Source: an uncultured virus (IMG/VR IMGVR_UViG_3300029258_001891)
Lineage: Duplodnaviria; Heunggongvirae; Uroviricota; Caudoviricetes
Length of the DNA stretch: 64,000 nucleotides
Virus record (IMG/VR): IMGVR_UViG_3300029258_001891
Reading direction: 5' to 3' (one strand)
The notes beneath the pieces were generated by a model. It was not told where the DNA came from. It ran no database searches and saw only the letters and a list, made by a program, of their open reading frames with translations. This document shows positions 16,019 to 55,634 of the stretch, piece by piece. Made by a program: the position numbers and the translations under genes. Every line of letters starts with the position of its first letter. Position 1 is the first letter of the stretch.

Positions 16019-16051
16019 AGGGATGGGGGAGTGATTATCTCCCCCATCCCT
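16019..16051 (+). terminator. strong GC hairpin (terminator or mRNA stabiliser)
   Basis: AGGGATGGGGGAG-7 nt-CTCCCCCATCCCT. Confidence 0.6.
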
Positions 16052-16074: not shown

Positions 16075-18177
16075 ATGCCTCAGGTAGCCGTGAAACAACT
16101 CACGTCTGGAAGTACAGGCGAACTTCTTGTAACAAGAGGCGGCGTGGTCGATCACGAAAAATTGAAACCGGATTCTTTGAACGGACCGACCGCTGCCGCG
16201 AATCAAGTTCCATTTGTTGTAGACACTTTGACCTTTGGAACGGACAACGCTTTCAAATGGAACAACACGGACAAGACTGTTGATCTGAGTGGCGGCGTTG
16301 CTTTCACGGAACGCGCGGATCACCCAGGAACTCCGGCACCCGGAAAAGGCATCTTGTGGGTGAAAAGCGATACTCCGAATGTCATCATGTTTACAGACGA
16401 CGCCGGAACGGATCACGATTTGTCCGGCGGCGGTGTCCATCCTGATCCCCACCAACTTGGAGACGGAACTTCAGGCGCACCGACGTATTCTTTTTCGTCT
16501 AACACGGATTCTGGAATCTACTATAATTCGACGTTCAATCACATGTATATGGTTTTCGACGCGACAAAACACATCGAAATCAACTCCACGGGTGTTTGTA
16601 TCGGTACTGGTTCACAACCCGCTGCTGGATACGCACTTACTGTGTACCAGAATATCTACACTACAGGTAATTCACGAGTAGATGGCCAGCGTCATGCTGG
16701 CTTAGGTTCTGCTGCCACTCCGAGCTACAGTTATTACGGCGATCAAAATAGCGGATCGTATTATCTAAATGTCTCAGGCGGATACGTCATTCATGTATTC
16801 GGCGGTTCTCAACGAATCGTGATGAACGCGACAGGAACATCTATTGGCTCTTCAGGAGCGCCTGTGGTGGGTTATCACTTGTATACGGCAAGTTTATACA
16901 CACAATTTGCCCATCTTGGAAGCGGCTCCGCTGGCGCTCCGGGATGGGGAATGTACGAGAATACGGACTGTGGCGCTTACTATCTCAAAACTGGTGTGGG
17001 TAGTCCCGCTGTTGTATTTGTTTACGACAGCGCCCAACGGATCGTAATGAACGCAACCGGAGTTTCCATTGGCTCTTCCGGCTCTCCCCAGGCTGGATAT
17101 GGCCTCTATGTCGGCGGCAAGATGTGGTCTTCCGACGACATGGAAACAAGTGCCCGTGGAGTTTGGCGAGCGAGTGGTGCCGCTGTTTCATCCGCAAGCA
17201 CCGGAGCAATCCGTTTTTTTACTACAACGAGCAAACTCCAAGTCAGCGAAAACGGCGGGGCTTGGGTCGATCTCATTCCGGGAGGGGGTGGGGGAGTAGG
17301 AGGCGCGGGAAGCGGAACCGACAACTATCTCGCCCGTTGGAATGGAACAACGCTGCTTGAAACGTCTGTAGTCTACGATGACGGAACAAACATCGGGTTG
17401 GGAACGATATCTCCTGACGCAAAGTTGCATGTTTCGAATAAACCCGCAATCGGCGTTGCTTCTTTTCTGGTCGGCGATGACACGTCCATGGGCGGAACCA
17501 TGGCTGCCGGTGTTCCGAAAATTCTCATCGGAGACACACAGGACGCATGGCAAACGTTTCTTTATTTTGCTCACTCAAGCAGCGAGTATGCTTATATCGA
17601 CTACAGTCAAGGAGGTATGCACATAAAAGCATTCAAACATCATATAAACATCGAAGCGACGGATACCAATATGGGCATCACGCTCACATCGAATGCCAGC
17701 GGGCAAGTCACATTGAAACACAGAGTAGGTGTTGGACTTGTGGATGTCGTCGCTGGTAACATCATGGATGTTGCTGGAGATGTAACCATTGGCTCGGGCT
17801 ATGCGGGAACCAATGCGGCTCCCACGGATGGTCTTCTTGTCGAAGGGAAGATCGGAATCGGTCACACCGGAACCGTGAACACGGCGCTCGACATGCTTGG
17901 TGCAATCTCCGTGAAAGAAATGTCTGCCCCCGCTGTCTCTCCTTCAGGCGAAGGCCGAATCTACTTCGACTCCACGAGCAAGACGTTCAAGGTGTCCGAG
18001 AATGGCGGGGCGTACAAGGGACTCTTCATCGGGGATAAGATCACAGGATGGGGCGCTCCCACGGGAACGGACACAAGAACGACGTTTGCCACCAGCACTG
18101 TCACCCTGGAGGAACTGGCCGAAAGAATCCATGCGCTCATTGACGACCTGACGAGCCTTGGTTTCATCGGAGCCTAA
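16075..18177 (+). CDS. long fibre protein with internal repeats
   Basis: Three GxG/AxxPxY...SGxYY...NxTGxxIG repeats; GTNIGLGTISPDAKLHV fibre motif. Confidence 0.8.
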   Translation: MPQVAVKQLTSGSTGELLVTRGGVVDHEKLKPDSLNGPTAAANQVPFVVDTLTFGTDNAFKWNNTDKTVDLSGGVAFTERADHPGTPAPGKGILWVKSDTPNVIMFTDDAGTDHDLSGGGVHPDPHQLGDGTSGAPTYSFSSNTDSGIYYNSTFNHMYMVFDATKHIEINSTGVCIGTGSQPAAGYALTVYQNIYTTGNSRVDGQRHAGLGSAATPSYSYYGDQNSGSYYLNVSGGYVIHVFGGSQRIVMNATGTSIGSSGAPVVGYHLYTASLYTQFAHLGSGSAGAPGWGMYENTDCGAYYLKTGVGSPAVVFVYDSAQRIVMNATGVSIGSSGSPQAGYGLYVGGKMWSSDDMETSARGVWRASGAAVSSASTGAIRFFTTTSKLQVSENGGAWVDLIPGGGGGVGGAGSGTDNYLARWNGTTLLETSVVYDDGTNIGLGTISPDAKLHVSNKPAIGVASFLVGDDTSMGGTMAAGVPKILIGDTQDAWQTFLYFAHSSSEYAYIDYSQGGMHIKAFKHHINIEATDTNMGITLTSNASGQVTLKHRVGVGLVDVVAGNIMDVAGDVTIGSGYAGTNAAPTDGLLVEGKIGIGHTGTVNTALDMLGAISVKEMSAPAVSPSGEGRIYFDSTSKTFKVSENGGAYKGLFIGDKITGWGAPTGTDTRTTFATSTVTLEELAERIHALIDDLTSLGFIGA

Positions 18178-24055: not shown

Positions 24056-26832
24056 ACAGTCTTATGGAACCCATGGCACCGCGTGTCTGCACGCGGGAAA
24101 CCAGTCAACCGACTGTGCCGTTGGATAGTCTTGTTTTGCGTATTCTCCGTCTTGCCGAAATCCTTTCTCAGAAGAGGCACTTCAAGTATCAGAAGGAGTT
24201 CGGCTATCGTTTTGTGGAAGCCGTTCTTCTCCATGACGGCGACATGCTTACCGCGCTTTGGGCTAGGCAGTCCGGCAAGTCTCAGTTGATTGCGGACATT
24301 CTCGCCGCGTGCTGCTTGATTCTTCCGCTTCTTGCGAGAATGAAAATCTTCGAAGACGATTGGCGCTTGAACTGTACCGACGAGCAAGGCAACTATCGCG
24401 GCTACAAGTACGGTGTCGTTGTCGGCATCTACGCGCCGAAACAGGAACAGGCTGACATCGTTTACAGTCGCCTTCGTGACACGCTCGAAACGGACACCAC
24501 GAAGGAAGTAGCCGCCGAATTGAACGTTGCCCTTGACATCGGCAACGCCAACAAGACTCGTCTTTCGAATGGAAGCCGGATTCGTTCTCAGTCGGCTTCG
24601 GAACAGTCACACATCGAAGGCGACACGTACCACATCCTGATTCTTGATGAGGCGCAAGACATCGGGACGCTGAAGGTGAGGAAGTGTTTTGCTGAAGGCA
24701 CGCTTTTCATTACTTCTGGAGGAATCGAAGTTCCTGTGGAAGAAGTTGTCAAAAAGAAACTGCCTGTGTTGACTCCTTCTGGCTTTTTTGAGTCTCGTGA
24801 TATTGAGTACCATGATAATGGTGTGCAACCCGTGTATCGTGTGACATTAGCAGGAGGAAGATACTTAGACGTTACGGCCAATCACCGGCATTTTGTGCGC
24901 AGCAGAACTCGGAGGGTTCCTTTCGAAGCCTTGACTTACGAAATCCAGCCCGGCTGGCAAATGGCTGTTCCTACACGATTGAATAATGCAGCAGGTGTCT
25001 TAGGGAACTTTGATCGAGGATTCTTGCTTGGCTTGCTTCTTGGTGACGGATGTTTCACTGGCGATAAGCCGCAAATAATTGTTGAGCCTTCTGTAAAGAA
25101 ACTACTTGACCGTATATGTCCGCATGAATTCGGCGTGCGTCCTGTAGTCTATAACGAGCAATCTAGTGGAATGCTTGAATGTGGGCTTACTTCGCCTGGA
25201 AACAAGAAAGGCTCTAATAAGTTGACAGAATGGCTGAAAAAAATCGGCGTTTGGGGGGCAAAGCGTGAGAACAAGCGTATACCCAATCTTCCTTGGAGCT
25301 TAGAATTTCTGCGCGGACTTGCTTCCGGGTTGATTATAGCTGACGGCAGTATAGAAAATCCGACTGTGAAACCTGTTGTTTCATTTTCCAACTGTTCAGA
25401 GTATCTTGTAGACGGCCTTCGGAAAACTTTGTTACACTTCGGCATTCAATGTGCTAAGTTCGAAGGTTTCGTGGAAAGCACAGGGAATTTGCCGGGAATA
25501 AAAGAACGTCTAGGCACCTATATGTACCGACTGCATATAAAGTCTGTTGAAGATGTGCGTGAATTTCATAAGCAGTTTAACTTAGGGCCAAAACAAGACG
25601 CTCTTGAAGCGGGTATCCGCACTATTCAAGGAAAAAGAGGGCGGAGTAGAAGTCAGTTTTATCCTGAAGACATACAGTTTGTTAGTGTTAAATCCGTCAG
25701 ACATATCGGAAAGAAACCCACATACTGCGTGACTGTTCCAGATGAACGGCATTTTGTCATTGCTAATGGAATCGTAACAGGTAACAGCCTTCATCCCATG
25801 GTTGCCGCGTACAACGGCGTCATTGTGAAGATCGGAACTTGTTCGACGGAGAAGTCTGATTTCTACACGTCGATCAAGTCCAATCAGCGTTTGTACGCGC
25901 AAGGCGAAGCGAAGAACCACTACCGATACGACTATCTTGTTTGTCAAAAGTACAACTCCATGTATCGGGACTACATCAAGAAAGAAAAAGTTCGCCTTGG
26001 TGAAGACAGCGATGAGTTCCGTCTTAGCTATTGCTGCGAATGGTTGCTTGAGCGTGGACAGTTCATCACGGACAAGCAGCTTATGACGCCCGCAATCGCT
26101 AAGACGCACGGCGGCTATCACGAGATTTGGCACCGATCTTCTCGTGTGACAACTCAGATCGCCGGGATTGACTTCGGAAAAATCCACGATCCAAGTGTGA
26201 TTACCGTAATGGACGTGGATTGGAGAACTCCCGTCGCTGATGAATGGGTTGACACGCCTGAAGGGAGTTTCCATTGGATCGCCTACAACAAGCGTGTCGT
26301 TGCTTGGCACATGCTTCTCGGCGACAACTACGAGCACCAATTCCACGAGATTGTGAACTTCCTCTCCAATTTCAAAGGACTGAGGAAGATCACTCTCGAT
26401 GCAACAGGTGTGGGGGAATGGGGACTTGACAAGTTCACCGTGTACTACAGCGAGTTTGATCGCGGGAAGGGGGCGGATGGAACGCCTGAAATGGGATTTG
26501 TCGAAGTGCAGGGAGTGAAGTTCACCCCGGCTTCGAAGTCGGATGGTTTTAAGATATTGCATTCCGATCTCATGTCGGGTAGACTCTCCTTCCCTGCCGG
26601 AGAGAAGGCGAGAAAGTCAAGACACTTCAGGCGCTTCGTGGGAGAGATGTTGGACTTGAGAAAGTTGTACAAGAACAACTACATGGTGTGCGAGCATCCA
26701 GACGAACCGGGAGCGCATGACGACTACCCTGTTTCTCTCATGCTTGCCGCCTACGGCGCGCAGGAACCGGCAGACACGGGCGAAATCGAAGTTCAACAGA
26801 ACTTCATGGTAGGAGCGGGGGTAATAGCGTAA
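24052..26832 (+). CDS. terL: terminase large subunit (intein-containing)
   Basis: Walker A ARQSGKS, Walker B ILILDEAQD, nuclease AGIDFGK...HDDYP; lies upstream of the portal. Confidence 0.92.
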   Translation: MNSLMEPMAPRVCTRETSQPTVPLDSLVLRILRLAEILSQKRHFKYQKEFGYRFVEAVLLHDGDMLTALWARQSGKSQLIADILAACCLILPLLARMKIFEDDWRLNCTDEQGNYRGYKYGVVVGIYAPKQEQADIVYSRLRDTLETDTTKEVAAELNVALDIGNANKTRLSNGSRIRSQSASEQSHIEGDTYHILILDEAQDIGTLKVRKCFAEGTLFITSGGIEVPVEEVVKKKLPVLTPSGFFESRDIEYHDNGVQPVYRVTLAGGRYLDVTANHRHFVRSRTRRVPFEALTYEIQPGWQMAVPTRLNNAAGVLGNFDRGFLLGLLLGDGCFTGDKPQIIVEPSVKKLLDRICPHEFGVRPVVYNEQSSGMLECGLTSPGNKKGSNKLTEWLKKIGVWGAKRENKRIPNLPWSLEFLRGLASGLIIADGSIENPTVKPVVSFSNCSEYLVDGLRKTLLHFGIQCAKFEGFVESTGNLPGIKERLGTYMYRLHIKSVEDVREFHKQFNLGPKQDALEAGIRTIQGKRGRSRSQFYPEDIQFVSVKSVRHIGKKPTYCVTVPDERHFVIANGIVTGNSLHPMVAAYNGVIVKIGTCSTEKSDFYTSIKSNQRLYAQGEAKNHYRYDYLVCQKYNSMYRDYIKKEKVRLGEDSDEFRLSYCCEWLLERGQFITDKQLMTPAIAKTHGGYHEIWHRSSRVTTQIAGIDFGKIHDPSVITVMDVDWRTPVADEWVDTPEGSFHWIAYNKRVVAWHMLLGDNYEHQFHEIVNFLSNFKGLRKITLDATGVGEWGLDKFTVYYSEFDRGKGADGTPEMGFVEVQGVKFTPASKSDGFKILHSDLMSGRLSFPAGEKARKSRHFRRFVGEMLDLRKLYKNNYMVCEHPDEPGAHDDYPVSLMLAAYGAQEPADTGEIEVQQNFMVGAGVIA
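24685..25785 (+). mobile_element. intein with LAGLIDADG homing endonuclease (367 aa)
   Basis: N-terminal CFAEGT, block B VTANHRH, LLGLLLGDG and ASGLIIADG, C-terminal FVIANGIVTGN followed by +1 Ser. Confidence 0.9.
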
Positions 26833-27038
26833 TGGCACAGCGTGGCGGACGTGGACAGAAAAAGAAGCTGCCCAAGTTGGGAACCGGGAAACGTTTTCAA
26901 CGGCTTCAACGATCCTTGGGAAGACAGGAAGACGGGATTGAAGACCCAAAGGCTTTGGCCGCTGTCATAGGCCGGAAAAAGTTCGGCGCAAAGAAGATGG
27001 CCAAGATGGCTGCCGCTGGACGCAAGAGGGCTAAGTAG
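26832..27038 (+). CDS. small basic phage protein
   Basis: LGTGKRFQRL...DPKALAAVIGRKKFG...AAAGRK; TAATG coupling. Confidence 0.75.
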   Translation: MAQRGGRGQKKKLPKLGTGKRFQRLQRSLGRQEDGIEDPKALAAVIGRKKFGAKKMAKMAAAGRKRAK

Positions 27039-27061
27039 TGTACCGAATTTTCGGCACACTA
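27036..27061. promoter_or_regulatory. putative operator, copy 2
   Basis: TAGTGTACCGA-ATTT-TCGGCACACTA directly upstream of the portal gene. Confidence 0.6.
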
Positions 27062-27079: not shown

Positions 27080-28711
27080 ATGAGCAAAGTGCTTGGCTTC
27101 TTGAGAAAGACTTTCACGGGACGTACCGATACGTATCTCGATTCTGCTTTGTCGGGGAACGATGTCTTGGACGTTACCGGAACTTTCTTTGAAGATCACT
27201 CCCGAGACTACACGCATACACGCCTTGCTCGCTACAAGCGCAACTGGCGCTTTTATCGCGGAGAACACTTCGAAGTTCGAACCATTGACGGGCAAAGAAA
27301 ACTCGCCATCAACTACTGTCGTCCCATTATAAACAAGTCCGTCGATTGGCTCTTTGGCTCCGGGTTTAAGATCACTACACCACCGGGGAACGAAAACATT
27401 GTTCCGCTTCTCGATATGGTGTGGAGAGCCAACGATAGAGACAAGATGCTTTGGGAACACGGACAGATGGGCGCTGTGACAGGCGATGCTTTTCTTTACA
27501 TCACCGTCGAAGATCGTGGTGTGGACGGAAAGCCTCTCCCTCTCGATCAGCAAAAGATCGTCATTCGCAATATAAACAGTTCTTATGTCCACCCCATCTA
27601 CGACGAAAGCGACGAACGGGAGATGTATGCCGTTCTCATCCAGTTCCCGACTGTGTTCAACTCTTCGGACAGACCTTTGCGGGCCATGACATTGAGAAGC
27701 GGACGCCCGCTTGGATTGTACTCCATCATCATCACCCGGAGAGAAGTCGTTGAGTATTGGAACCGGGACGAGATTCCGGGTTCCAGAAGGAAGAACTTCC
27801 TTGGCCGGATTCCTGTCGTCCATACGAGGAACATCCCTATCGCAAGTTCGTTCTTTGGTGAGTCCGACATTGACGACATCATTCCTTTGAATGAGCACAT
27901 CAATGAAGCGGCTAACGACATCGATTCGATCATCAAGTATCATTCCGCTCCGACAACCCTCATCTTCGGAGCGAGAGCGCAGCAACTTGAGAAGTCGCCG
28001 AATCAGGTATGGTCCGGCCTTCCTGAAAAGGCGAGAGTGGAGAACTTGGGACTGGAAGGGGAACTTGAAGCGGCAGTGAATCACTTGAAGTTCCTGAAGC
28101 TGTCCTTGCATGAAATCTCCAATACGCCCGAGAACTCCTTGGGATCGATCCAAGAAATCAGCAACACATCTGCCGCCGCGTTGGAAGTGACCTATCTTCC
28201 TTTGATCGAAAAGACTCGAAGGAAGTACACGACATACGGCAGTTCCATCGTCCAGGCGAACGAGATCGTTCTTCAGATTTTGGATCAACGCTTCGGCGTC
28301 AAGATCGGAGAACAAATCCAGGACAAGACGAGGATGTACGAAACGGGAATTGAGTTCAACTCCCCGTTGCCGCGAGATGAAAAACTCGTGGTGGACATGC
28401 TTGTCGCCAAGATGGAGCAAGGATTGGAGTCCAGAGCGGGAGCACTGAGAACTCTCGGTGTCAAGGACGTGAAGAGGAGGATGCTGGAAATCCTCGCAGA
28501 TCAAAGACAGACGTTGGCCGAAGACGTTGAACGCGCTGTGGCGGCTCTCGGCGAGCGTCCCGTGAATCTGAACGTGTACGCGCTCGGCTCATACGGATTG
28601 AACCTGCCTGAACTGGAAGCCTCTTTCCAGGCGCAGGATACAGCCTATGACGAGCTACTGTCCGAAATGGAGAAGACGGAAGAGGGTGTAGGCGGGGGAG
28701 AAAGTCCTTGA
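27080..28711 (+). CDS. portal protein (SPP1 gp6-like)
   Basis: RLARYKRNWRFYRGEH, NYCRPIINKSVDWLFG, GAVTGDAF, LGRIPVVH, GESDIDDIIPLN, SNTSAAAL. Confidence 0.9.
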   Translation: MSKVLGFLRKTFTGRTDTYLDSALSGNDVLDVTGTFFEDHSRDYTHTRLARYKRNWRFYRGEHFEVRTIDGQRKLAINYCRPIINKSVDWLFGSGFKITTPPGNENIVPLLDMVWRANDRDKMLWEHGQMGAVTGDAFLYITVEDRGVDGKPLPLDQQKIVIRNINSSYVHPIYDESDEREMYAVLIQFPTVFNSSDRPLRAMTLRSGRPLGLYSIIITRREVVEYWNRDEIPGSRRKNFLGRIPVVHTRNIPIASSFFGESDIDDIIPLNEHINEAANDIDSIIKYHSAPTTLIFGARAQQLEKSPNQVWSGLPEKARVENLGLEGELEAAVNHLKFLKLSLHEISNTPENSLGSIQEISNTSAAALEVTYLPLIEKTRRKYTTYGSSIVQANEIVLQILDQRFGVKIGEQIQDKTRMYETGIEFNSPLPRDEKLVVDMLVAKMEQGLESRAGALRTLGVKDVKRRMLEILADQRQTLAEDVERAVAALGERPVNLNVYALGSYGLNLPELEASFQAQDTAYDELLSEMEKTEEGVGGGESP

Positions 28712-28745
28712 CATTTTCGGGGATAACCGAATAATCGGTACACTA
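28708..28745 (+). promoter_or_regulatory. promoter overlapped by operator copy 3
   Basis: TTGACA 28708-28713 with AATAAT -10; reverse TAGTGTACCGA-N4-TCGG at 28723-28745. Confidence 0.6.
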
Positions 28746-28838
28746 CCGTAAGGGCACTGACCGTGGGCGTAGGGACGACTGGGAAGCACGGCGCATCGTG
28801 AAGTTTCGTGTAGACTTGTTTCGGGAAGGAGAAAGATC

Positions 28839-29110: not shown

Positions 29111-30130
29111 ATGGAAACGACTAGTGGAATCCCCGCGTCAAAAGCGACGGCTGCGCTTCAAGCCGCCGAAGAGAAGAAGCGTCTTGGGGCAGAGGGGAAT
29201 CAAGCGGCAACGCCTGCTGTTGTCGAGAAGGTTACTCCGACTCCCGAAGCCCGTTGTCCGTCTTGTGGATGGGATGGGCAAACGAAGACGGAGTATCCAG
29301 CCGACGTGAAAGCTGAACTCGAAAAAGTTCGGCAGCAAGAGAAGCAAAAGTTGTACGACAAACTTTCCAAACTCGAACATTACGAGTCGGAGAACGGAAC
29401 TCTCAAGCAGAACGTTACGCTGTTGACCGATCAGAACGCTGAACTTCAAAGTGCTGTTGACACGCTGAAGGCGAAAGTCGAAAAGGCTTCTTCAAAAGCA
29501 AAGAAAGAAGATAATCCTGGGTTTGATGTCCAAGCGTTGATCGAGGACACAGCCGCCCAAGCCACTGCCGCAATGAAGAAGCAGTTCGATGAAGAGCGTG
29601 CACAGTACACTACCGAGATCAGGGAACTCACTTCTCGCGTCTCGGCCCTGCAAGGCGACAGCTTAGCTGCTTTCCGTCAAAGACTCATCGATGAAGCGGG
29701 TGGGAAGATTGTTGCTGAACTCGTGAAAGGCTCGACGGAAGAAGAACTTCGCGCGAGTGCTCTTGAGGCAAAGGCTGTCTATGCTCGATATTTCCCTGCC
29801 GGAGCAATTTCGAGCGCAGAACCGGCGGCGAATGCTTCATCGTCTGAATCCGCACAGACGCCACAGGGGACCACCCCTACTGCCACCATGCCACAAACGC
29901 ACAGCGTCCCCGCTGCAAATGGGGTGCAACCGGCGGCTCCTACGCCGTTGTCTGCTCCCCGTCCGGCAACTTCGGGCGTCGAAGGCATCCCGGCGCAAAC
30001 CGAAGAAGAAAAACTTCACCAGGATGTGAGAAACATGTCCCCTGAAGATTACGCGGCTAATCGTAAGAAGATTTTGAGCAGAGTGCGGCAGATTTATCCG
30101 CGCAATCCAAATCCTCTTACAAGCCGATAG
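29111..30130 (+). CDS. capsid scaffolding protein
   Basis: Coiled coil EKVRQQEKQKLY, Pro/Ala linker, C-terminal NMSPEDYAANRKKIL; directly before the MCP. Confidence 0.85.
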   Translation: METTSGIPASKATAALQAAEEKKRLGAEGNQAATPAVVEKVTPTPEARCPSCGWDGQTKTEYPADVKAELEKVRQQEKQKLYDKLSKLEHYESENGTLKQNVTLLTDQNAELQSAVDTLKAKVEKASSKAKKEDNPGFDVQALIEDTAAQATAAMKKQFDEERAQYTTEIRELTSRVSALQGDSLAAFRQRLIDEAGGKIVAELVKGSTEEELRASALEAKAVYARYFPAGAISSAEPAANASSSESAQTPQGTTPTATMPQTHSVPAANGVQPAAPTPLSAPRPATSGVEGIPAQTEEEKLHQDVRNMSPEDYAANRKKILSRVRQIYPRNPNPLTSR

Positions 30131-30166
30131 TCTTTGAGGGACTAGACTGTTTGGAGAAAGAGAACA

Positions 30167-31129
30167 ATGGCCATTGCAACCGCAATCGCGTCTGGTGGCG
30201 GCGCTACTCCTCTTCCTGAAGCGATCCTGGAAGTGTACTCGCAGGAAATCATCTTCCAGGCGCAACCCTTGCTGCGCTTTGAACAGGTGGCGAGTGTGAA
30301 GGAAGAGTTGAACGTCCTTCCGGGCCTGACGATCAAGTTCCTAAAGTATTCTTCCCTCACCGGCTCGAATGTTCTCACCGAGAACGTTGACATCGTGCCG
30401 GATGCCCTGGCCGCTTCGCAGATTAGCATCGCTGTTGGCGAGCGAGGCAAAGCCATTGGGGTGAGCGAACTGTTGCTTCGCTCGTCTTTCGATGACATCT
30501 TGGCGAGTTCCGCGCAACTGCTCGGAATGCACTTCGCCAAGACGCGGGACGCGGAAATCCGCGATACGCTGTACACCGTTCCTGGCGCGCTGTACGCGCG
30601 AGGCAGAAGCGGACGTGCCGCTATCACGAGTTCCGACACTTTCGACGTGGACTTGATTCGTGATGCTGTTTCCACCCTGGCAACCAACAAGGCTCCCAAG
30701 TTCAACGGGGATGCCTACATTTGTTTCATCCATCCTCATCAGGCGAAGTTCCTTCGTCGGGATCAGGCGTGGGTGAATGCCGCGAACTACGGCGCTCCCG
30801 ATCAGATTTTCCTTGGGGAGATCGGGCGCATCGAAGACGTTCGTTTCATCGAGACGACTCAGGTTCGGAAGATTCTGAGCACCGATGGATCGATCTACAC
30901 CGACAACGAGGATACCGGCGTGGACGCTGGCGTGTTCAGCACGAACGCCGATGTTTACTCGGCCCTCATCGTCGGGGATCACGTGATTGGCCTTGCCATT
31001 TCCCTGGAAGCGGAAATGCGGGACGATGGCGTGAAGGACCATGGGCGGAAGCACTCCATTGCCTACTACGGCATTTGGGGTACTGGCTTGGTCGAAAGTG
31101 CGCATGGTCTGGTGTTGGAGTCTGCGTGA
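30167..31129 (+). CDS. major capsid protein (N4 gp56-like)
   Basis: VYSQEIIFQAQPLLRFEQ, PGLTIKF, YICFIHPHQ, GEIGRIEDVRFIETT, YYGIWG. Confidence 0.92.
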   Translation: MAIATAIASGGGATPLPEAILEVYSQEIIFQAQPLLRFEQVASVKEELNVLPGLTIKFLKYSSLTGSNVLTENVDIVPDALAASQISIAVGERGKAIGVSELLLRSSFDDILASSAQLLGMHFAKTRDAEIRDTLYTVPGALYARGRSGRAAITSSDTFDVDLIRDAVSTLATNKAPKFNGDAYICFIHPHQAKFLRRDQAWVNAANYGAPDQIFLGEIGRIEDVRFIETTQVRKILSTDGSIYTDNEDTGVDAGVFSTNADVYSALIVGDHVIGLAISLEAEMRDDGVKDHGRKHSIAYYGIWGTGLVESAHGLVLESA

Positions 31130-31133
31130 GTGA

Positions 31134-31303
31134 GCAAGGCAACCGTGCAGGGAGGTTACATCATGCCGTGGTGGCACAAAGGACTGCACTCCATGTCCAC
31201 CACGGGGAACTTTCCTCAGACCCCTGGCCGGTACGTGCATGATGGCGTGGAGGGGGCGGGCATGACCCGCTTAGACCAAATGGTCCCCGGAATCCGGCCT
31301 TGC
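31134..31303 (+). ncRNA. putative structured RNA with kissing-loop pseudoknot
   Basis: Closing stem GCAAGGC/GCCTTGC; CATCATGC/GCATGATG; CGTGGTGG/CCACCACG; complementary loops GTGCAG and CTGCAC; further hairpins. Confidence 0.6.
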
Positions 31304-31320
31304 CTTGTTTTGTGGAGCGC

Positions 31321-31386
31321 AGTACATAGGGGGATAGGGGCAACGGTGGCGAGTGTTTCAAAGCCGTTCCTATCCTCCTTTGTGCT
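31321..31386 (+). other. long RNA hairpin just upstream of the next RBS
   Basis: AGTACATAGGGGGATAGG pairs with CCTATCCTCCTTTGTGCT (G-U pairs, one mismatch). Confidence 0.6.
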
Positions 31387-31401
31387 AAAAGGAGAAATCG
31401 G

Positions 31402-32217
31402 ATGAGCCGACAAATCAACGATGCCGATCCAAATGTCTTCGGAGACGGGTATAAACCTCAACGTGAATCGCCGCCTGTTGAAGTCATTGGCGGCGTTCTT
31501 GACGAAGCGGACCTTGGTGGTGTCACAAAGCACAGTGGCGCGACCAATCACGATGCCGGGGCGGGCACTTACGACATGAGTGTGACTGCCGACCAACTTC
31601 TCAACACGTACTTCAGCGAAGACAACGGGGCTTCGTACAAGAAAGTCTCCATCGATGGTCTTGTGGGCGCTACGCCTGCCGCGACCACGGCGGCTGAACT
31701 TGCCGCGCTTCTTGCCGCGAATGCCGTCTTCGACAAGTACATCGCCGCGTCAGACAACGGTGGAACGCTTCGGCTGAACGCGCGAATGCCTTCCAGTCGT
31801 TTCAAGATGTATTTCACTGGCGCTGCTGCCGCGAAGTTGGCTGGTGTTTTCACTACTGCCGTTGCTCCGGGAAGTGCTGTTGGTGGTGCGGATCAAGCGG
31901 GCGGGGCTTTTGAGTTCACCGTGCAGGATCAGGAAGGAAATGTTCTTTCCAACAAGAAAGTGTTCCTGTCCGCGTTGGATGCTTCTGGAGTTGTCATCGC
32001 TACCACGGCTCTTGGCCTTATGTCTCTTGGTCAACTTCTTGACACGGAGGCAGGTGGAAACGATGGTGTGGAGATGTTGAGTGACGCTGACGGGAAAGTG
32101 AGCGGCTACGTCGCCGACACGGCGGCGGAAGATGTCTACGTGACTGCTCGTGTTGGAAGCAATACCGCTGCGTTGGCGGTTCTTTCGCAAGGGCAGAAGA
32201 AAGTCACCTTCGTCTAG
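31402..32217 (+). CDS. putative head decoration/minor capsid protein
   Basis: Ala/Gly/Thr-rich, Ig-like C-terminus; follows the MCP; SD AAGGAG. Confidence 0.7.
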   Translation: MSRQINDADPNVFGDGYKPQRESPPVEVIGGVLDEADLGGVTKHSGATNHDAGAGTYDMSVTADQLLNTYFSEDNGASYKKVSIDGLVGATPAATTAAELAALLAANAVFDKYIAASDNGGTLRLNARMPSSRFKMYFTGAAAAKLAGVFTTAVAPGSAVGGADQAGGAFEFTVQDQEGNVLSNKKVFLSALDASGVVIATTALGLMSLGQLLDTEAGGNDGVEMLSDADGKVSGYVADTAAEDVYVTARVGSNTAALAVLSQGQKKVTFV

Positions 32218-32303
32218 GGAGACGAGGATGTGAGTAGAGAGAATGACACGTGGACTCTCTCGAAACAACCGTGTCGATTTTTCACTAACAAAGGAGAAAG
32301 ACC

Positions 32304-32888
32304 ATGGCGAAGGACAACAAAACTCCCCCGAAGAATGCGGGCACGAACGAAGCACCGAAGGACGAAGGAAAAGGCGATGTGGGCACGGCTACTGCCACGT
32401 CCCCGTCTGCTTCTCCAACAGCGGAAACAATCGTACCACAAAGTTCCGCTGCCGTGAACAACCCGGCGAAAGTTGCTGAGATGAATCAGCCGCGATCAAC
32501 AAGGCCAGGAAAGTTTCTGCACGAGTTTGAGTTTGTGGATGAAGCTGCTTTGCGAGAAGATGGCTCGGAAGTTCTTTCCGCTGGCGGTCTTCGCTCGCAG
32601 AACACGATGGAAAAAGTTCGTCAGCGAAAAGCTCTTCAAGCGAAGATCGACAACGCGGCGAAAAGGTTCATGCAGACATATCAACCCACGGATGCGAATC
32701 CGACTTTGGCGCGCAGTACGGAACTCGTCACGATTCGCGCCATGAAGTCGCACCATCCCGCACCGACGATAGGCACGTTTAGTTTTCAGGACGTGTACAA
32801 CAGCTTTCTCGACGGGATGAAATACGTTTGCCCCCGTTTCGTGGCAGACGCGCTTGAAGAGGGAGACAACGCCATCACGCTTGAGTAA
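32304..32888 (+). CDS. head-associated hypothetical protein
   Basis: Disordered N-terminus; C-terminal FLDGMKYVCPRFVADALEE. Confidence 0.7.
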   Translation: MAKDNKTPPKNAGTNEAPKDEGKGDVGTATATSPSASPTAETIVPQSSAAVNNPAKVAEMNQPRSTRPGKFLHEFEFVDEAALREDGSEVLSAGGLRSQNTMEKVRQRKALQAKIDNAAKRFMQTYQPTDANPTLARSTELVTIRAMKSHHPAPTIGTFSFQDVYNSFLDGMKYVCPRFVADALEEGDNAITLE

Positions 32889-36573: not shown

Positions 36574-37389
36574 ATGGCTCATTACGAGCGCCCAAGTCCC
36601 TACAACTACACTCTTGGGGGCATTCGTTTGTGGGTGAACGAACTTCTCGATGCTTCCGCAACTCCGCCTAAGTATCGCGGATTTGTCGATCTTGGCTGCA
36701 TCGAAGAGGCTCCTTTCGCACAAGCGATTGACTTTCAAGAGCACTTCTGCGCGTCCACCGGAACGCGGGTGAAGGATCGAAAGATTGTCAAGGAAATCTC
36801 TTCGACCATCACTGTCACCATCGTTGAAGCCGATCCCGAGAACCTTCGGCTCTTCTTCCTTGGTGGGGACATCACGGACGTTGCTGCTTCTCCAGGTGGT
36901 GGGAGTGTGACAACCGAAGTGATGAAGCTGACCGGAACGGAAAGGCGCATTCTGAAGGATGGTGTCAACGCCTCTTCGGTTGTTGTTGAACCGTATGGTG
37001 GCGGCGCTGCGTTCACTGTCACGACCGACTACGTGATCGAGGATCATTTCGGCCACAAGGCCATCCGTCGTGTTGCCACTGGCAGCATCGGCGATGGCGA
37101 CTTCGTTGAAGTGGACTACACGCATGATGTTTTGGAGAGCAGAAGTTTCAATCCGCTCACCCAAATTCTCAAGACTGCGCAGGTCCAGTTCATCGGTGTG
37201 TCGGATACCGGACAGGAAATGATCGCACAGTTTGACAACGTTCAGATCAATCCGACTGGTGACTTCAGTTGGAACAGCGACGACTGGACTTCGTTCCAGT
37301 TGGAACTGGACATTCTGGACAACAGCCTTGCTGCGCCGAGTGCGCCCTACGGGGTCATTCAGCAACTTGGGGCTGGCCAGAACATTTAG
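36574..37389 (+). CDS. major tail tube protein
   Basis: NYTLGGIRLW, FVDLGC, DPENLRLFFLG, INPTGDFSWNSDDW; precedes chaperone and tape measure. Confidence 0.85.
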   Translation: MAHYERPSPYNYTLGGIRLWVNELLDASATPPKYRGFVDLGCIEEAPFAQAIDFQEHFCASTGTRVKDRKIVKEISSTITVTIVEADPENLRLFFLGGDITDVAASPGGGSVTTEVMKLTGTERRILKDGVNASSVVVEPYGGGAAFTVTTDYVIEDHFGHKAIRRVATGSIGDGDFVEVDYTHDVLESRSFNPLTQILKTAQVQFIGVSDTGQEMIAQFDNVQINPTGDFSWNSDDWTSFQLELDILDNSLAAPSAPYGVIQQLGAGQNI

Positions 37390-37426: not shown

Positions 37427-37468
37427 GGAGAGAGGGAGTGAGGGCCTTGAACCTCACTCTCTCTCTTT
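37427..37468 (+). terminator. long hairpin after the tail tube gene
   Basis: GGAGAGAGGGAGTGAGG / CCTCACTCTCTCTCTTT. Confidence 0.6.
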
Positions 37469-37483
37469 CATTTATCACGGGAG

Positions 37484-38469: not shown

Positions 38470-41400
38470 GTGGCCGAAACCATTCTGATTAGGCTTCAAC
38501 TCGACACGCGAAGTATTCAAGTCGTTGAAGAACGCTTGAAGAAGTTTAAGACGCGAGTCGAAGCAAGGCTTAACCTGAAGATCAAAATCAATCAGGCTGC
38601 GCTTACGGCTACTCTCAAAGCCGCCGAAAAGAAGCTGGATGCTTTTCGGAAACGAGCACAAGACAGACTTGTTATCAAAGCGAGAATCCAAGTTGACAGC
38701 GCGGCATTGGCCGGACTCCAAACGGCACTCGCTTCGATAAACAACTTCACTCGGAAGATCGCTGCATCTACCACGGCGGCATCTAAAGGCTTCACTCAGT
38801 TTTCTACTGTGGTGAATCAAGCCAACAAAGCAATCAGAGACTTGAACCGCGCTCGTATTGCCGGTGGTGCTGGTGGAGCATTCGCGGAAACCACGAAGTC
38901 AGCGGGATTGCTCAATCGTGCTCTCGGAATAACGAGACAGTCGTTCTTCGGCTTTGTGGCGGCTGCCGCGATAGGCCAGCGTGTCTTGCGCAGCGTTGTT
39001 GAAACGTTCACCGAGTTCGAAACAAAACTTGTTCGTGTCGGGCGTTTGGTTGGAAAGTCCGGCGATCAGTTGCGGGACTTGGGAGAAGAACTTACGAACG
39101 TTGCAAGCAGTCTCGGCATCGCAACGAACGAAGTTCTCGATCTTGCGGAAGCGGCTGCGAGGTTGGGCGTTGCTCAAGACAATCTCGTGCAGTTTGTCAA
39201 GCAAGCCCAAAAAGTCGCTATCGCGTTGCAGTTGACCGGACAGGAAGCGGCTGAAGCGTTCAAGTCGTTTACGCTTCTCTTCAAGATCGACATTGCGAAC
39301 ATCACCAAGATCGGCGACGCATTCAATGCCGTGGCCGATGCTTCAGCCGTCTCCGCTGCTTCTCTCGTTCGTTTCGTGCAGTTCCTTGGACCTGTGGCGA
39401 ATCAGTTCAACATTCTCGGCACGGAAGGCATTGGAGCTATGACGGCTCTTGGTGCCGTGCTCGCGGAGTTGGGTGTTTCGGCGCAAGTCACAGGAACAGG
39501 CTTGCAGAGAATCCTCGCGCAGATCACAGACCGTTCCAGGGAAGCGGCAAGAGTCGCGGGCGTTTCCTTCGAAGAGTTCTCGAAACTCCTCAAAACGGAT
39601 ATGCTCGGCGCTCTCGATCTTGTGTTGAAGGGATTCAATGCTCTTGATGCGCAAGGAAAGATCACGGCGCAAACGCTTCTCGGCCTTAACAACATTCGCG
39701 TTGGACGTGTTCTTAACTTACTGGCCGCGAACACGGAACGAGTGGCACAGAAACAACTCATCGCCAATCAGGCTTTCCGAGACGGCGTCTCCGTTGAAGC
39801 GGAGGTGCAACGGCAGTTGGCAACGCTTCAAAGTCAGTTCCAGCAAACGGCGAATGAAATCGGGCGTGTTATCAGAGATGCGTTCGAACCGTTCGGTAAG
39901 ATCGTTAAAGACGTGCTTTTCCAAGTGCGCGAATGGATCAAGGAGAACCCTGAGTTCGCAAAGCAGATCGCAACGCTTGCCATTGAGTTTGGTGCGTTGG
40001 TTGCTGTGCTTGGCACCGTGGCGACAGCGGCATTCATCTTCATCGAAGTTTTTGGAAGTGCGCTCGGTGTCATAACGGCTTTCGTTGGTTCTGTGGGAAG
40101 ACTTCTTCTTTGGTTGGCCAGACTTGTTCCCGCGTTTGGAGCAGCTTCAAGGGCCATCCTTTTCTTCTCGGTGGCTTCGACAAGAGCAGCAAAGATTGCC
40201 ATTGCCAATCTCATCGCGGCTATCACAGGAGCAGGTGTGGGCGGCGTGAGTCTTATCGGCGCGCTCGGAAAAGTGCGTATCGCTTTTCTTGCAGCATCTA
40301 AAGCCGCACTCATCTTCCTTGCATCCGCAGCAAAGATCATTGCCGTTGTCGGAATCCTTGTTGCTGGCCTTGTGGCCATCATCGATCTTGCTTCCGAATT
40401 AGCCTATGCTCTTGGTCTGATTCAAAAGCCTACGGAATTCTTGAACACTGGATGGAAAAAACTCGGAGAGACGTTCGGCTTTGTCGAGAAACAGACGGAG
40501 AAAACCAGGAACAGGCTCAGGGAAATACGTGAAGAAGCAAAGAAATCGGCAGAAGAAACCGGCGCGTTGACGAACGCTGTGAACGTTTTGAACCAAGAGT
40601 TCAAGACGATTGCGGATGCTACAGAGCGTGTCAGCACGGGGTTGAAGGACTTCACGGAAGTTTCAAGAGAGTCCATCAACAATTTGCTCACGCAGTTTAG
40701 TCGTACAGACGTAAAACTTCAAGAGTTGATCGATCAGGAAGGTTTGACCGAAGGCATCGCAAGAACGCTTCGGCAAGGCGCTGTGGGCGTGCGGCAGGCT
40801 TTCGATCAATTCATACAGGAAGCGTTGACAAGCCGTGAAGGCAAAGTAGGCGAAGAGGAAGCTATTGCTCGCGTTCAGCGCGTTGTGGATCGGATCAACT
40901 TCATCGTAGGAAAGGATGCGCCGCAATTCAAAATCGAAGTTGATAAAGCCAATTTCGATAGAGTGCGCGGACAAGTCAACGAGTTTATCAAGGCACTTGC
41001 TTTTGAAGCTGTCTCCGATGACAGCGAAAAAGCAAGTAAAGCTCTCGCCAAGTTTCTTCAAGTCTTTGGTGCTATCGACGCAGCCACTTTTGGTGCCGAA
41101 GCTCTTAAACAATTTGATAAAGACCTGCAAAGCCTTCGAGAAACTTTTCACATCACATCGGAACAGGCGCTTATCTTCGCCACGAAACTCCAGGCAAGCC
41201 GGATTCCTCTTGCGCAAGTTGCTGGTGGCCTGAATCCTTTCATGTTCCAGCTTGAACGACTATTCGGGAGTGGACAGCGTGGAATAGAAGTGTTCGATGA
41301 GTTCATTAACACGCTCACAAAATTCCGATCCAGTATTGTTTCTATTCCTGACATCGATTTTGTTTCGGACCTGAAATTGGATACGGCCAACGAGTCATTG

Positions 41401-44400
41401 CGAACGTTCGTCAATTTGACGGCGGAACAGCAAACCAAACTCGTTGAGATCGTGGAGCAACAGAAAGTTCGTGCTAAACTACAAAAAGGCATTGCGGATA
41501 ATGCTAAGGAAATTGCTAGACAGGAAGAAAAAGGTCTTACAGCACTCCGCAAGCGTTTGAACTTTCAGAAAGAAATACTGCGCTTCATCCAAAGGAATTT
41601 GGAACTTCAAGGTAAGGACAAGTCGCCAGAACTGCTTAAAGATGAAGAAAATACCAAAACAATCATTCTTCAGCTTGAAGAAAAGATTGCGAAGGAAACG
41701 AAGAAGACCCAGGATAACGACAAGGAACGTGTGCGGATCAATCGTCTCCTTGAGCGAATCAATCGGCGTAACGAATCTCTTCTCGCGCGACAGGCGGAAA
41801 CTGCAAAGGATATGGCGGCGCAAATCGAAGCGATTCATAAACGCGAGATGGCAATCGTCGATACACTGCGTAAGCAAGGAGCGACTGCCCAGGACATCGC
41901 GAAGGCGCGTGTCAAGGCCACACAAAATGCCCTCCTTGCTGAAACAACTTTCTTGACGAAGCAGCTTGAAGTTTTCCGGCGCGAACAGCAAAAAGCCGTT
42001 CGTGACTTGGACAAACTTCAGAAGAGCGGAGAAGCGTTCCTTCGAAGACAACTTCGGCTGCTCGATCCTAACAAGCAGATCAACGCTCTTGAAGACCTGT
42101 TTGATGAGTTCCAGAAGGAAGCCCTCAAGGGCGGCTTCGTAGGTCTTGAACGTGTGGCTCTCACGCGCTTCCAGAAGCGTTTCCAGCAAGTCGCGGCAGA
42201 ACAAAAAAAGGAAGATCAGACTCAACTTCAAGACTTGTTCAAGAAACGGATTGAAGTCCAAGAGAGGCTTCAGGAACTCGGTTTCGAAGACGAAAAGGCC
42301 AGACTCGATTCTCTCAACCAAAATCGTGAACGTCAGTTGTTGCGTGAGAAGGGCTTGAGAGGACAAGCACTCGAACTCGAATTGCAGAAGCGGATGTTTG
42401 AAATCGAACAGGAAGACAGGGTTCGAAACCGCAATTTCGAAAGTGCTACCAAAGAACTTGAAGAAACCGAAACCAAAATCACAGACATCCAAAACAGGAC
42501 GTTCAACAATCAAGGCAAAGTACAAGCTCTTTACAAAAGCGCGTCTGCTGAATTGCAGAAAGCCTTTGCTATTGGCGATGCTCGCGTGAAAGAGATGGAG
42601 AGACGCGCCAAGAATGCTTCCAACGGTATTATCACGGCTTCGCGTGAACTTGCCGATGCGGCAAGGAAACTTGAAGAAGCCGCGAAGCTGGCGTTCTTCC
42701 GCCGAATCTTCAAAGAAGAGTTCGATCAGCAAAAAGCCACGAACGAAGCGCGCTTGGATGCCGCAAACGCGACCATCAAAACATTCACCAGTCTCCAACA
42801 GCTTTTGGATGTCGAATTCCGAGAGAAGCTGAGTGAGTTCGCGCGAACGTTCGAAGACTTCGGCACGGAGTTTTTGACTTCAGGAAAGAAGTTGGTTGCC
42901 ATCAATGCTAGTCTTGGTGAGACGGAACAGTTGATCCGTCAGCTTAAACTGAAGGAGACTAGCGGAGAGATACTCACTGAAACTGAAAGGGAAGCCCTTC
43001 TAAACGCCGAAGCGCGGCAAAAGAGTCTCAAGAGGGACAGGAAGAGGCTTGAGGAAACCGAGAAGCAAAACAGGGAAACGCTGAGAGCGTTCCGGGAAAA
43101 GCAAGGTGCTTTGGCTGTTGAGTTCGCGGAAAGACTCAAAGAAGCCTTTCCTGAAAGAGAGGACTTGCAGAAAGCCTTTGCTGAAGGCTTCGATAAAATC
43201 CTCACGTCCGTTGAAAGGGCTGGCCCGACACAAGAGGCTTTTGGTTTTGTCAGTGAACTTACCGACAAAGCCATCCGCGATCTTATCAACGACATCAACT
43301 TCAGGCGCACTGAGATCGAGAAGAGCACGCAGAAGTTGTCCGACAAAATGGACACGTTCCTTGAGGCGCTTCCCAAAACAATCGAAAAGACTTTCGAAGC
43401 GTTCAAGAAGGGTAATGAAAAACTGAATGAAGCCGCTGACAAAGCGGAAGACATCGCGAAGCGCGCTCTCTCGAAGCCTGAAGTTGTCAAGCCCGTCGAA
43501 GAAGCGGCGAAGGCACCTGCCGAGCGTGAGAAGAAAGCCGCCAAGGTGAGTAAGGAGGATACGTTTGAGTTCACTCAGTTTGCCCTTGATCTTGTCAAGG
43601 CCCAAGCAGAAGTGTACGACGTTGACTTGACTGACGAAGGCGCTGTTGCCGCCGCAAGAGAAAGGCTGATTCAGGCAACGGCCGCTTTGAATGACTTCTG
43701 GAGCAAACAAAGCAGCGCGAACAAAGAACTCTTCGACAGGATGTTCACGCTCATAGAGAACGCCGGGAAAGCGGCTTTTGACGCGGCAGAGTTCCCGCTT
43801 GATAAGGCGTTTGCTTTCAGACACGCCGCGATCACGCAGATGAACGAACTCTTCAGGCAGTTCCAGGAAACTGATTCAAGGCTTCGTCACACGGTTGTTT
43901 CTCTTGCTGAAAAACAACAAAAGGAAAAAGAGATAGAGCGCGAAATTCAAGAAGTTATGAAGGAAGAAATAGGAGCCGAAGGCGCAAGAGGAGTCGAAGG
44001 AGCTACGGAAGCCGCCGAAGCCGCTCCTATCGCGGAACCCGCCGTAGAAGCCACAGATCGTGTCAAGACGGCTACAGAAACCTTCACGGCCAAAGTTCAA
44101 GAAGGATTCACGGCTGTTGCAGGAAAGTTGAATGAAGTACAAGCCGTTTTTGACAAAGCTATCGTGCCGTTTACCGAAATGCTGAAAGGCATTAACTTGG
44201 AAACACTCAGTGAGGCAACTACAACCTTGAATGATTCCGTCGCTGACGCGAATGCTTCGCTCACAGGTCTTCTCGATGTTCAAAGTGAAAACATCGAAGC
44301 CATCAACGGGCTTGCCGAAAATGTCGCTGATTTTGCGTTACAGTCCGCCGAGAAGACGAGAGAGCACACGAACTACATCGCGGAGAAAAAAGAGAACGTG

Positions 44401-44439
44401 GCGACGGCACAGGAAATCCTCAACAGCGCAACTTTGTAG
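38470..44439 (+). CDS. tape measure protein (TP901-like core)
   Basis: 1989 aa, Ala-rich helical; FTEFETKLVRV...GTGLQRIL; central hydrophobic segments. Confidence 0.92.
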   Translation: MAETILIRLQLDTRSIQVVEERLKKFKTRVEARLNLKIKINQAALTATLKAAEKKLDAFRKRAQDRLVIKARIQVDSAALAGLQTALASINNFTRKIAASTTAASKGFTQFSTVVNQANKAIRDLNRARIAGGAGGAFAETTKSAGLLNRALGITRQSFFGFVAAAAIGQRVLRSVVETFTEFETKLVRVGRLVGKSGDQLRDLGEELTNVASSLGIATNEVLDLAEAAARLGVAQDNLVQFVKQAQKVAIALQLTGQEAAEAFKSFTLLFKIDIANITKIGDAFNAVADASAVSAASLVRFVQFLGPVANQFNILGTEGIGAMTALGAVLAELGVSAQVTGTGLQRILAQITDRSREAARVAGVSFEEFSKLLKTDMLGALDLVLKGFNALDAQGKITAQTLLGLNNIRVGRVLNLLAANTERVAQKQLIANQAFRDGVSVEAEVQRQLATLQSQFQQTANEIGRVIRDAFEPFGKIVKDVLFQVREWIKENPEFAKQIATLAIEFGALVAVLGTVATAAFIFIEVFGSALGVITAFVGSVGRLLLWLARLVPAFGAASRAILFFSVASTRAAKIAIANLIAAITGAGVGGVSLIGALGKVRIAFLAASKAALIFLASAAKIIAVVGILVAGLVAIIDLASELAYALGLIQKPTEFLNTGWKKLGETFGFVEKQTEKTRNRLREIREEAKKSAEETGALTNAVNVLNQEFKTIADATERVSTGLKDFTEVSRESINNLLTQFSRTDVKLQELIDQEGLTEGIARTLRQGAVGVRQAFDQFIQEALTSREGKVGEEEAIARVQRVVDRINFIVGKDAPQFKIEVDKANFDRVRGQVNEFIKALAFEAVSDDSEKASKALAKFLQVFGAIDAATFGAEALKQFDKDLQSLRETFHITSEQALIFATKLQASRIPLAQVAGGLNPFMFQLERLFGSGQRGIEVFDEFINTLTKFRSSIVSIPDIDFVSDLKLDTANESLRTFVNLTAEQQTKLVEIVEQQKVRAKLQKGIADNAKEIARQEEKGLTALRKRLNFQKEILRFIQRNLELQGKDKSPELLKDEENTKTIILQLEEKIAKETKKTQDNDKERVRINRLLERINRRNESLLARQAETAKDMAAQIEAIHKREMAIVDTLRKQGATAQDIAKARVKATQNALLAETTFLTKQLEVFRREQQKAVRDLDKLQKSGEAFLRRQLRLLDPNKQINALEDLFDEFQKEALKGGFVGLERVALTRFQKRFQQVAAEQKKEDQTQLQDLFKKRIEVQERLQELGFEDEKARLDSLNQNRERQLLREKGLRGQALELELQKRMFEIEQEDRVRNRNFESATKELEETETKITDIQNRTFNNQGKVQALYKSASAELQKAFAIGDARVKEMERRAKNASNGIITASRELADAARKLEEAAKLAFFRRIFKEEFDQQKATNEARLDAANATIKTFTSLQQLLDVEFREKLSEFARTFEDFGTEFLTSGKKLVAINASLGETEQLIRQLKLKETSGEILTETEREALLNAEARQKSLKRDRKRLEETEKQNRETLRAFREKQGALAVEFAERLKEAFPEREDLQKAFAEGFDKILTSVERAGPTQEAFGFVSELTDKAIRDLINDINFRRTEIEKSTQKLSDKMDTFLEALPKTIEKTFEAFKKGNEKLNEAADKAEDIAKRALSKPEVVKPVEEAAKAPAEREKKAAKVSKEDTFEFTQFALDLVKAQAEVYDVDLTDEGAVAAARERLIQATAALNDFWSKQSSANKELFDRMFTLIENAGKAAFDAAEFPLDKAFAFRHAAITQMNELFRQFQETDSRLRHTVVSLAEKQQKEKEIEREIQEVMKEEIGAEGARGVEGATEAAEAAPIAEPAVEATDRVKTATETFTAKVQEGFTAVAGKLNEVQAVFDKAIVPFTEMLKGINLETLSEATTTLNDSVADANASLTGLLDVQSENIEAINGLAENVADFALQSAEKTREHTNYIAEKKENVATAQEILNSATL

Positions 44440-55620: not shown

Positions 55621-55634
55621 TGGGAGGATTCAAC

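Follow-up and report, generated by a model that had tools for sequence, protein, structure and literature searches.

The stretch of DNA behind the major capsid protein (MCP) gene of this uncultured tailed phage is probably, though far from certainly, a composite. It would consist of a conserved hairpin (31321-31386), most likely a partial terminator and/or a barrier to 3' exonucleases, and of a lineage-specific insert or spacer (31130-31320) that carries an orphan open reading frame (ORF) and no conserved non-coding RNA (ncRNA). The window, i.e. the whole stretch of DNA that was analysed, has a length of 64,000 nucleotides. A first-pass annotation had described the region behind the MCP gene as one large multi-stem ncRNA with a kissing loop, possibly comparable to the pRNA of phage phi29 or acting as a ribozyme. 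This description is not supported: only the 3' hairpin is conserved, and the 5' 170 nt are absent in the two closest relatives. The value of the analysis is mostly corrective, in that a hand-drawn multi-stem RNA gives way to a conserved, ordinary post-capsid hairpin and a lineage-specific insert that is read as an orphan ORF by gene callers. The features concerned are listed in Table 1.

Table 1 Features of the window that bear on the stretch behind the capsid gene
Feature	Position	Strand	Remarks
Large terminase gene	24064-26832		The whole window is a tailed-phage contig
SPP1-type portal gene	27080-28711		
Scaffold-like gene	29111-30130		
MCP gene	30167-31129	+	320 aa; stop TGA 31127-31129
Lineage-specific spacer/insert	31130-31320	+	Contains the 5' multi-stem domain (31134-31303) and a T-rich tract
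Predicted multi-branched fold	31134-31303	+	Closed by GCAAGGC/GCCTTGC; best-supported inner hairpin 31167-31204
Shine-Dalgarno-like GGGAGGT	31150-31156	+	6 nt before ATG 31163 (-13 to -7)
Orphan ORF (predicted)	31163-31405	+	80 codons from ATG 31163; 91 codons from GTG 31130 (31130-31405)
Conserved interrupted hairpin	31321-31386	+	25 bp; helices of 6+12+5+2 bp; purine-rich 5' arm; 4 G-U pairs
Ribosome-binding site of downstream gene, AAAAGGAG	31387-31394	+	Abuts the hairpin directly
Downstream gene	31402-32217	+	271 aa; weak Ig-like Big_1 signal; kept in L123 and L003
Major tail protein gene	36574-37389		
Tape measure gene	39439-44439		

The MCP was assigned to the major head protein family phrog_1357 (E 2.5e-55) and to Pfam Phage_capsid_3, and its C-terminus (...LESA*) is common to relatives. 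The large terminase ORF is of unusual length (922 aa); terminase profiles match its residues 40-203 only, and a weak recombinase-like match is found at residues 541-575. A palindrome, TGTACCGA-N4-TCGGTACA, recurs with variants in intergenic positions (1103-1125, 27036-27058, 28727-28746, 52492-52514 and 60261-60283), including one on either side of the portal gene, close to its ends. The palindrome forms a short hairpin and is a possible binding site for a regulator or a possible small terminator. In the tail/baseplate region, a 346-aa protein with 10.1 % cysteine (47911-48951) adjoins a 372-aa protein with 4.6 % cysteine (46783-47901). Further along, a 322-aa protein (61056-62024) consists for 33.5 % of Asp and Glu; its coding sequence is a long run of triplet repeats of the GAA/GAC/GAG type.

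Relatives were collected in MCP-based searches, which yielded 14 and then 80 loci in viral contigs, 23 loci in metagenome contigs and 54 loci in genome contigs. Apart from identical copies, the MCP identities found were 82 %, 72 %, and then 59 % or lower. The closest relative beyond the identical copies is L123 (MCP 82 % identical), followed by L003/L004 (72 %). L123 is a 7.3-kb contig in a MAG labelled Candidatus Saccharibacteria, which is either a host hint or the result of mis-binning of a phage contig.

The long hairpin at the 3' end of the stretch, already pointed out in the first-pass annotation, is real and is conserved in the nearest relatives. It folds at -33.6 kcal/mol; the fold z of this region is -3.22 and none of 200 shuffles folded as well. 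The hairpin is located at the same place, before the same downstream gene, in the window, in L003/L004 and in L123. In L003 the helices measure 4+10+4+2 bp, displaying the same four-helix architecture, and the L123 hairpin follows the same plan (z -4.14) and is matched by the covariance model at E 6e-4. The sequence (U)AAAAGGA(G) directly follows the hairpin base in the window, L003 and L123, and the start codon is found 15-17 nt further. Covariation in homologs, which had been proposed as a check on the supposed large RNA, was found for the 3' hairpin: 8 of 20 pairs were changed on both sides and 91.7 % of the cells were paired in an alignment that comprises three sequences only and was fitted to the model, a number of changed pairs reached by none of 500 shuffles. 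In slid controls, with structures shifted by 1-3 columns, at most one pair was changed on both sides, and a plain MAFFT alignment of the window and L003/L004 gave 4 of 20 such pairs. An additional match of the covariance model, R1 (window 17276-17353, E 0.008-0.025), lies inside a gene; it was attributed to chance and was excluded from the covariation count. The minus strand folds worse (z -1.95 vs -2.90), which together with the G-U pairs indicates an RNA of the + strand. As judged from these sequence comparisons, the hairpin is conserved in both structure and position.

Strong hairpins behind the MCP gene are found throughout the relatives. Among the 80 viral loci, 62 were examined, the other 18 being cut at the end of the capsid gene or apparent duplicates. 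These 62 loci gave 39 distinct gaps of 40-300 nt; gaps outside this range and the copy in the window itself were not counted. A fold z below -2 was obtained for 26 of the 39 gaps (median -2.9), and a hairpin of -12 kcal/mol or better is present in 32 of 40 gaps (the 39 and L123). Behind the stem of these 32 strong hairpins, at least five of the following eight bases are T in 5 cases, and at least four in 10 cases. Within the capsid family, the position of post-capsid stem-loops is conserved and their sequence is not. Elsewhere in the window, a 17-bp hairpin with a purine arm (37428-37470, z -5.6) is located right after the major tail protein gene and has a U-rich tail, UUUCAUUUAU. A 13-bp hairpin, also with a purine arm (16019-16050, z -4.5), follows the gene at 14591-15997; these two are the strongest local folds in the window. 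Shortly before a DnaC-like helicase-loader gene (55581-56246) there is an AT-rich, perfect 16-bp hairpin (55514-55556, z -6.2), which may be related to an origin or to regulation.

The hairpin is most likely a post-capsid-gene terminator or an mRNA-stabilising hairpin of a known kind; indeed, it is a stable stem-loop on the coding strand, directly between the MCP gene and the next gene. Located at the 3' end of the capsid message, it would act as a partial terminator and/or as a barrier to 3' exonucleases, and either activity would keep the capsid mRNA above the messages of the genes behind it. It would be one of a set of hairpins placed by the phage after its most abundant structural genes. 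Such a role is close to the capsid-stoichiometry regulator suggested as an alternative in the first-pass annotation. Counted from the outermost pair, the tails in the three close lineages are AAAAGGAG, TAAAAAGG and AAAAGGAG, with no good U-run. When only the 12-bp stem is considered, the tail in the window is UUUGUGCU, which is not a canonical U-rich tract. A scan for consensus terminators did not flag the hairpin at 31321-31386. Classical intrinsic termination is uncertain, because a U-run is missing in all three close lineages, and the hairpin may work as an exonuclease barrier, as an RNase III site or through an effect on downstream translation.

Terminators behind capsid genes are known from other phages. 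The T-phi terminator of T7 follows gene 10. In SPP1, the annotation places a Rho-independent terminator at 8775-8815, with MCP gene 13 ending at 8777 and gene 14 starting at 8828 (PMC6316719). According to a long-read study of a Pseudomonas phage, which cites T7, most phage terminators are leaky and balance expression (PMC9163698). Like the SPP1 terminator after gene 13, the hairpin studied here is a stable GC-rich stem-loop in a short non-coding stretch that leads from the capsid gene to the next late gene. Unlike that SPP1 terminator as annotated, the hairpins of this phage and its two nearest relatives are long (20-26 bp, interrupted), have no clear U-run and lie against the next Shine-Dalgarno (SD) sequence. 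Moreover, in this phage 191 nt separate the capsid stop codon from the hairpin, instead of just a few bases.

Alternatively, the hairpin would be no terminator. It would instead be an RNase III-type processing site, or stabilise the downstream message or act on its translation, since it abuts the ribosome-binding site of that gene. In favour of this are the 25-bp stem with its internal loops and the three close lineages, which all lack the U-run and in which only 0-2 nt separate the base of the hairpin from (U)AAAAGGAG. In several distant relatives (L047, L062, L082, L087, L095 and L100), the post-capsid hairpin likewise runs straight into an SD-like tail, AGGAGG or AAAGGAG. However, canonical terminators do occur among the post-capsid hairpins of the relatives, if as a minority (5/32 or 10/32, depending on the T content required), and the sister hairpin behind the tail gene continues into UUUCAUUUAU. 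In a compact genome, furthermore, a hairpin against an SD sequence may just reflect lack of space. On balance, such a processing, stabilising or translational role in place of termination is considered rather unlikely.

The remainder of the stretch has no counterpart in the relatives. The gap after the MCP gene measures 109 nt in L123 and 129 nt in L003/L004, and the 5' domain is absent from both. The spacer between the MCP stop codon and the hairpin is about 24, 49 and 191 nt long in the three closest lineages and wholly different in sequence. The blastn alignment of L123 with the window ends where the capsid gene ends. The downstream gene is kept; of the 271 residues of its product, 150 are identical in L123 and 131 in L003. 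None of the MCP-related loci in viral, metagenome and genome contigs carries the 5' domain, identical copies excepted. Blastn and tblastn searches with the 5' domain against all collected loci gave no match, and neither did its covariance model, consisting of a single sequence and its MFE structure, elsewhere in the window or in 45 loci picked from the 80 viral loci. Likewise, no match was found by blastn with 30167-32217 among GenBank phages, and the downstream protein used as query in viral contigs retrieved identical copies only. Because it is absent from L123 and L003/L004 and unmatched in these searches, the 5' domain is regarded as specific to this lineage.

A single, identical copy of the stretch is present in the nearest full virus record. 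The 276 nt do not differ between the 7 copies checked, and a comparison of 4 runs over 30600-31900 revealed no differing letters, indels or joints; no RNA run was found to contain the stretch. The sequence is unchanged in samples of 7 studies, an invariance that is uninformative on constraint because there are no variants at all. Within the window no further copy of the stretch was found, and it is therefore no multi-copy element here. Most likely, 31130-31320 is an insert or spacer of this phage lineage, either a moron-like orphan ORF or plain spacer.

The region had been presented as a gap of 270 nt in an otherwise tightly packed operon. This gap is in fact spanned completely by an ORF, in its longer (31130-31405) or shorter (31163-31405) version, and the stretch is not free of ORFs. 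Gene callers from three sources predict this ORF, with a length of 91 or 80 aa. GTG 31130 is the codon directly after the MCP TGA, in the same frame, and the stop codon of the ORF (TGA 31403-31405) overlaps the ATG of the downstream gene at 31402 (ATGA). The 11-mer CAGGGAGGTTA before ATG 31163 is identical to that before gene 50464; a 5-mer SD sequence precedes 13 of 30 gene starts vs 6.1 % of 758 other ATGs. The ORF thus possesses a start codon, a ribosome-binding site and an open frame in operon orientation. The probability that this frame is open by chance is P = 0.046 in shuffles, and 14 % for any + frame.

Codon usage differs along the ORF. Codons 1-58 score 0.169, which corresponds to the 25th percentile of windows from real genes (P = 0.024 vs open shuffles). 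The last 33 codons, encoded by the hairpin that is non-coding in relatives, score -0.055 (0.9th percentile), like random sequence, and the ORF as a whole scores 0.088 (5.7th percentile). The Asp+Glu content of the ORF product is 4.4 %, below that of all 29 genes compared, and its Trp and His contents are high. AF2 modelled the product with a pLDDT of 52; the Atlas model has a pLDDT of 0.35, and its structural neighbours in the Atlas all have a TM below 0.5. No Pfam or PHROG family was found for the ORF, nor a homolog among 5.8 billion clustered proteins, and searches of viral and genome contigs with the ORF retrieved nothing but the ORF itself. An exhaustive HMMER search of 1.84 billion representatives returned only the ORF itself and three repeat proteins, whose scores are inflated by a single short match that is counted repeatedly. 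The match to P0005 (E 1.6e-9) was rejected as a homolog, as one 24-residue match (13/24 identical, 28.5 bits) had been counted five times in a repeat protein; a single repeat-unit match is far from significant in that library. Pfam searches with P0005 and P0006 were uninformative.

Translation of the predicted ORF has, in our estimation, a chance slightly short of even. A conserved protein-coding gene had been named as a finding that would speak against the RNA; an ORF is indeed present, but since it is not conserved, it is not such a gene. It rather resembles the morons, extra genes that individual phage lineages carry between conserved structural genes, as in HK97 and HK022. Like morons, the ORF has its own ribosome-binding site and separates two genes that are neighbours in the nearest relatives. 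Unlike morons, it has no promoter of its own that could be found and no homolog, it is predicted here, and the hairpin downstream belongs to the backbone and not to the insert. Such an 80-codon moron-like ORF, with its strong ribosome-binding site, would read through the hairpin and end on the start codon of the next gene.

A base-by-base check confirmed that all complementary segments that had been paired by hand in the 5' part are present where they had been reported. These are the closing stem (GCAAGGC 31134-40 and GCCTTGC 31297-303), AACC and GGTT flanking GTGCAGGGA, the stem segments CATCATGC (31159-66) and GCATGATG (31237-44), and the inner stem segments CGTGGTGG (31167-74) and CCACCACG (31197-204) with the cap GGA-CTGCAC-TCC. 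The segments of the proposed second pseudoknot, CCCCT and AGGGG, also exist in the sequence. Pair probabilities are high for the closing stem (0.98) and for the CGTGGTGG/CCACCACG hairpin (0.94), and about 0.001 for both the AACC/GGTT hairpin and the CATCATGC/GCATGATG stem. As for the kissing loop, the hexamers GTGCAG (31145-50) and CTGCAC (31184-89) are complementary, but the AACC/GGTT hairpin that should present the GTGCAG loop has a probability of 0.001. The nested structure as drawn has an energy of -52.1 vs -76.1 kcal/mol for the MFE structure, which puts it 24 kcal/mol higher. Because the helices needed are at about 0.001 and the drawn structure is far above the MFE, what is left of the kissing loop is a pair of complementary hexamers in an unsupported architecture. 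Its appearance in the drawing is put down to hexamers that happen to be complementary in a GC-rich sequence.

The folding of the 5' part is only modestly unusual. The whole 253 nt fold at -112.6 kcal/mol (z -2.90, 200 dinucleotide shuffles). The fold z of the 5' 170 nt is -2.38, and 5 of 200 shuffles were equally good. Compared with dinucleotide-shuffled controls, the 5' part is therefore better by a narrow margin, and it is the 3' hairpin (0/200) that clearly stands out. Among random 170-nt windows of the same phage, 4 of 94 reached the z of the 5' part, which ranges from -2.4 to -2.6, and the 5' part ranked 408-450 of 3192 windows in a GC-adjusted scan. It contains two perfect inverted repeats of at least 8 nt (0.30 expected, P = 0.039) and four of at least 7 nt (1.15 expected, P = 0.027), counts that are matched by about 2-4 % of the 170-nt windows of this phage. 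Taken together, complementary segments and fold z exceed chance, in the 5' part only modestly so. The T-rich tract of the insert is located at 31304-31315.

Given these data, it is very improbable that 31134-31386 is a structured ncRNA, be it a pRNA-like ring, a ribozyme or a processing element, in which complementary loops of one molecule or of different molecules engage each other. The existence of all complementary segments, the fold z of the whole stretch and of its 5' part, the enrichment of inverted repeats (P about 0.03-0.04) and the robustness of the closing stem and one inner hairpin are in its favour. However, Rfam gave no match at E up to 10 in 30000-32500 and none at gathering score over the whole window; a tRNA/tmRNA scan detected none. 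The 5' part is missing from the relatives with 82 % and 72 % capsid identity, which have the same capsid and portal families, and its covariance model found nothing in the 45 loci. The helices presenting GTGCAG are hardly ever predicted to form and the drawn structure lies well above the MFE. A motif scan found no promoter-like site in the stretch. Finally, the phage has a 922-aa large terminase and an SPP1-type portal, and not the phi29 packaging system. The 5' domain shares with phi29 pRNA its size of about 170 nt and, in the hand-drawn structure, two mutually complementary loops. It differs from phi29 pRNA in genome type and packaging machinery, in lacking an Rfam match, in not being located at a genome end with its own promoter, in its loop-presenting helix, which is not predicted, and in its absence from close relatives. 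The comparison fails in every feature tested, i.e. curated family match, two presented loops and conservation among phages sharing the packaging machinery, and a pRNA-like ncRNA is not supported.

A rival explanation, that the insert is a non-functional spacer, is judged unlikely. The 5' domain would then be what is left of an insertion or replacement where the sequence between the capsid stop codon and the conserved hairpin evolves fast, and the ORF would be a chance open frame in GC-rich sequence. This agrees with the varying length and wholly different sequence of the spacer in the three closest lineages, with the chance openness of the frame (4.6 % of shuffles, 14 % for any + frame), with the atypical composition and the lack of a confident fold of the ORF product, and with folding that is unexceptional in this genome. 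In addition, a comparable spurious ORF, of 86 codons, crosses the hairpin in L123. Against it argue the strong SD sequence at the right spacing in an open frame, the ATGA by which the ORF overlaps the next gene, the gene-like score of codons 1-58 and the somewhat better folding of the 5' part than of shuffles; the constancy of the insert in samples of 7 studies is uninformative, as there are no variants at all. It is improbable that one lineage recently acquired the 170-nt insert as a functional module, be it a structured RNA in the 3' UTR of the capsid mRNA or a translated element, i.e. the 80-codon ORF or a tail made by read-through of the TGA. Nothing specific speaks for the structured RNA or for the tail. 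In the last case, the 91 codons after the capsid TGA would be reached by programmed read-through, stimulated by the RNA structure behind the stop codon, and a 10-kDa tail would be present at the C-terminus of a minority of the capsid subunits. Extended minority capsid species are a comparable outcome in Q-beta (A1) and T7 (10B). The ORF lies in the capsid frame, with a single TGA between them, and is open to the next gene; RNA structure begins 5 nt past the MCP stop codon, and codons 1-58 score like a gene. The in-frame position, however, is a 1-in-3 chance, and the relatives show no long in-frame MCP extension other than simply the next gene. TGA is an ordinary stop codon here, ending 13 of 29 genes, and for that reason recoding of TGA was rejected. 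For the 91-codon extension there is no homolog, its composition is atypical and the confidence in its fold is low, and its C-terminus is encoded by the hairpin that is non-coding in relatives. The likelihood of programmed read-through is accordingly considered minimal.

The preferred reading remains that of a conserved hairpin preceded by a lineage-specific insert. If the insert is a translated module, ribosomes would melt the conserved hairpin, coupling downstream expression to translation, and an attenuator-like switch would have been laid on a terminator of the backbone. If the ORF is translated through the hairpin, the arrangement would lend itself to testing whether a terminator in a phage late operon is controlled by translation. 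For the capsid family, a strong hairpin after the MCP gene is a positional constant (32/40 gaps), and those that look like canonical terminators are a minority.
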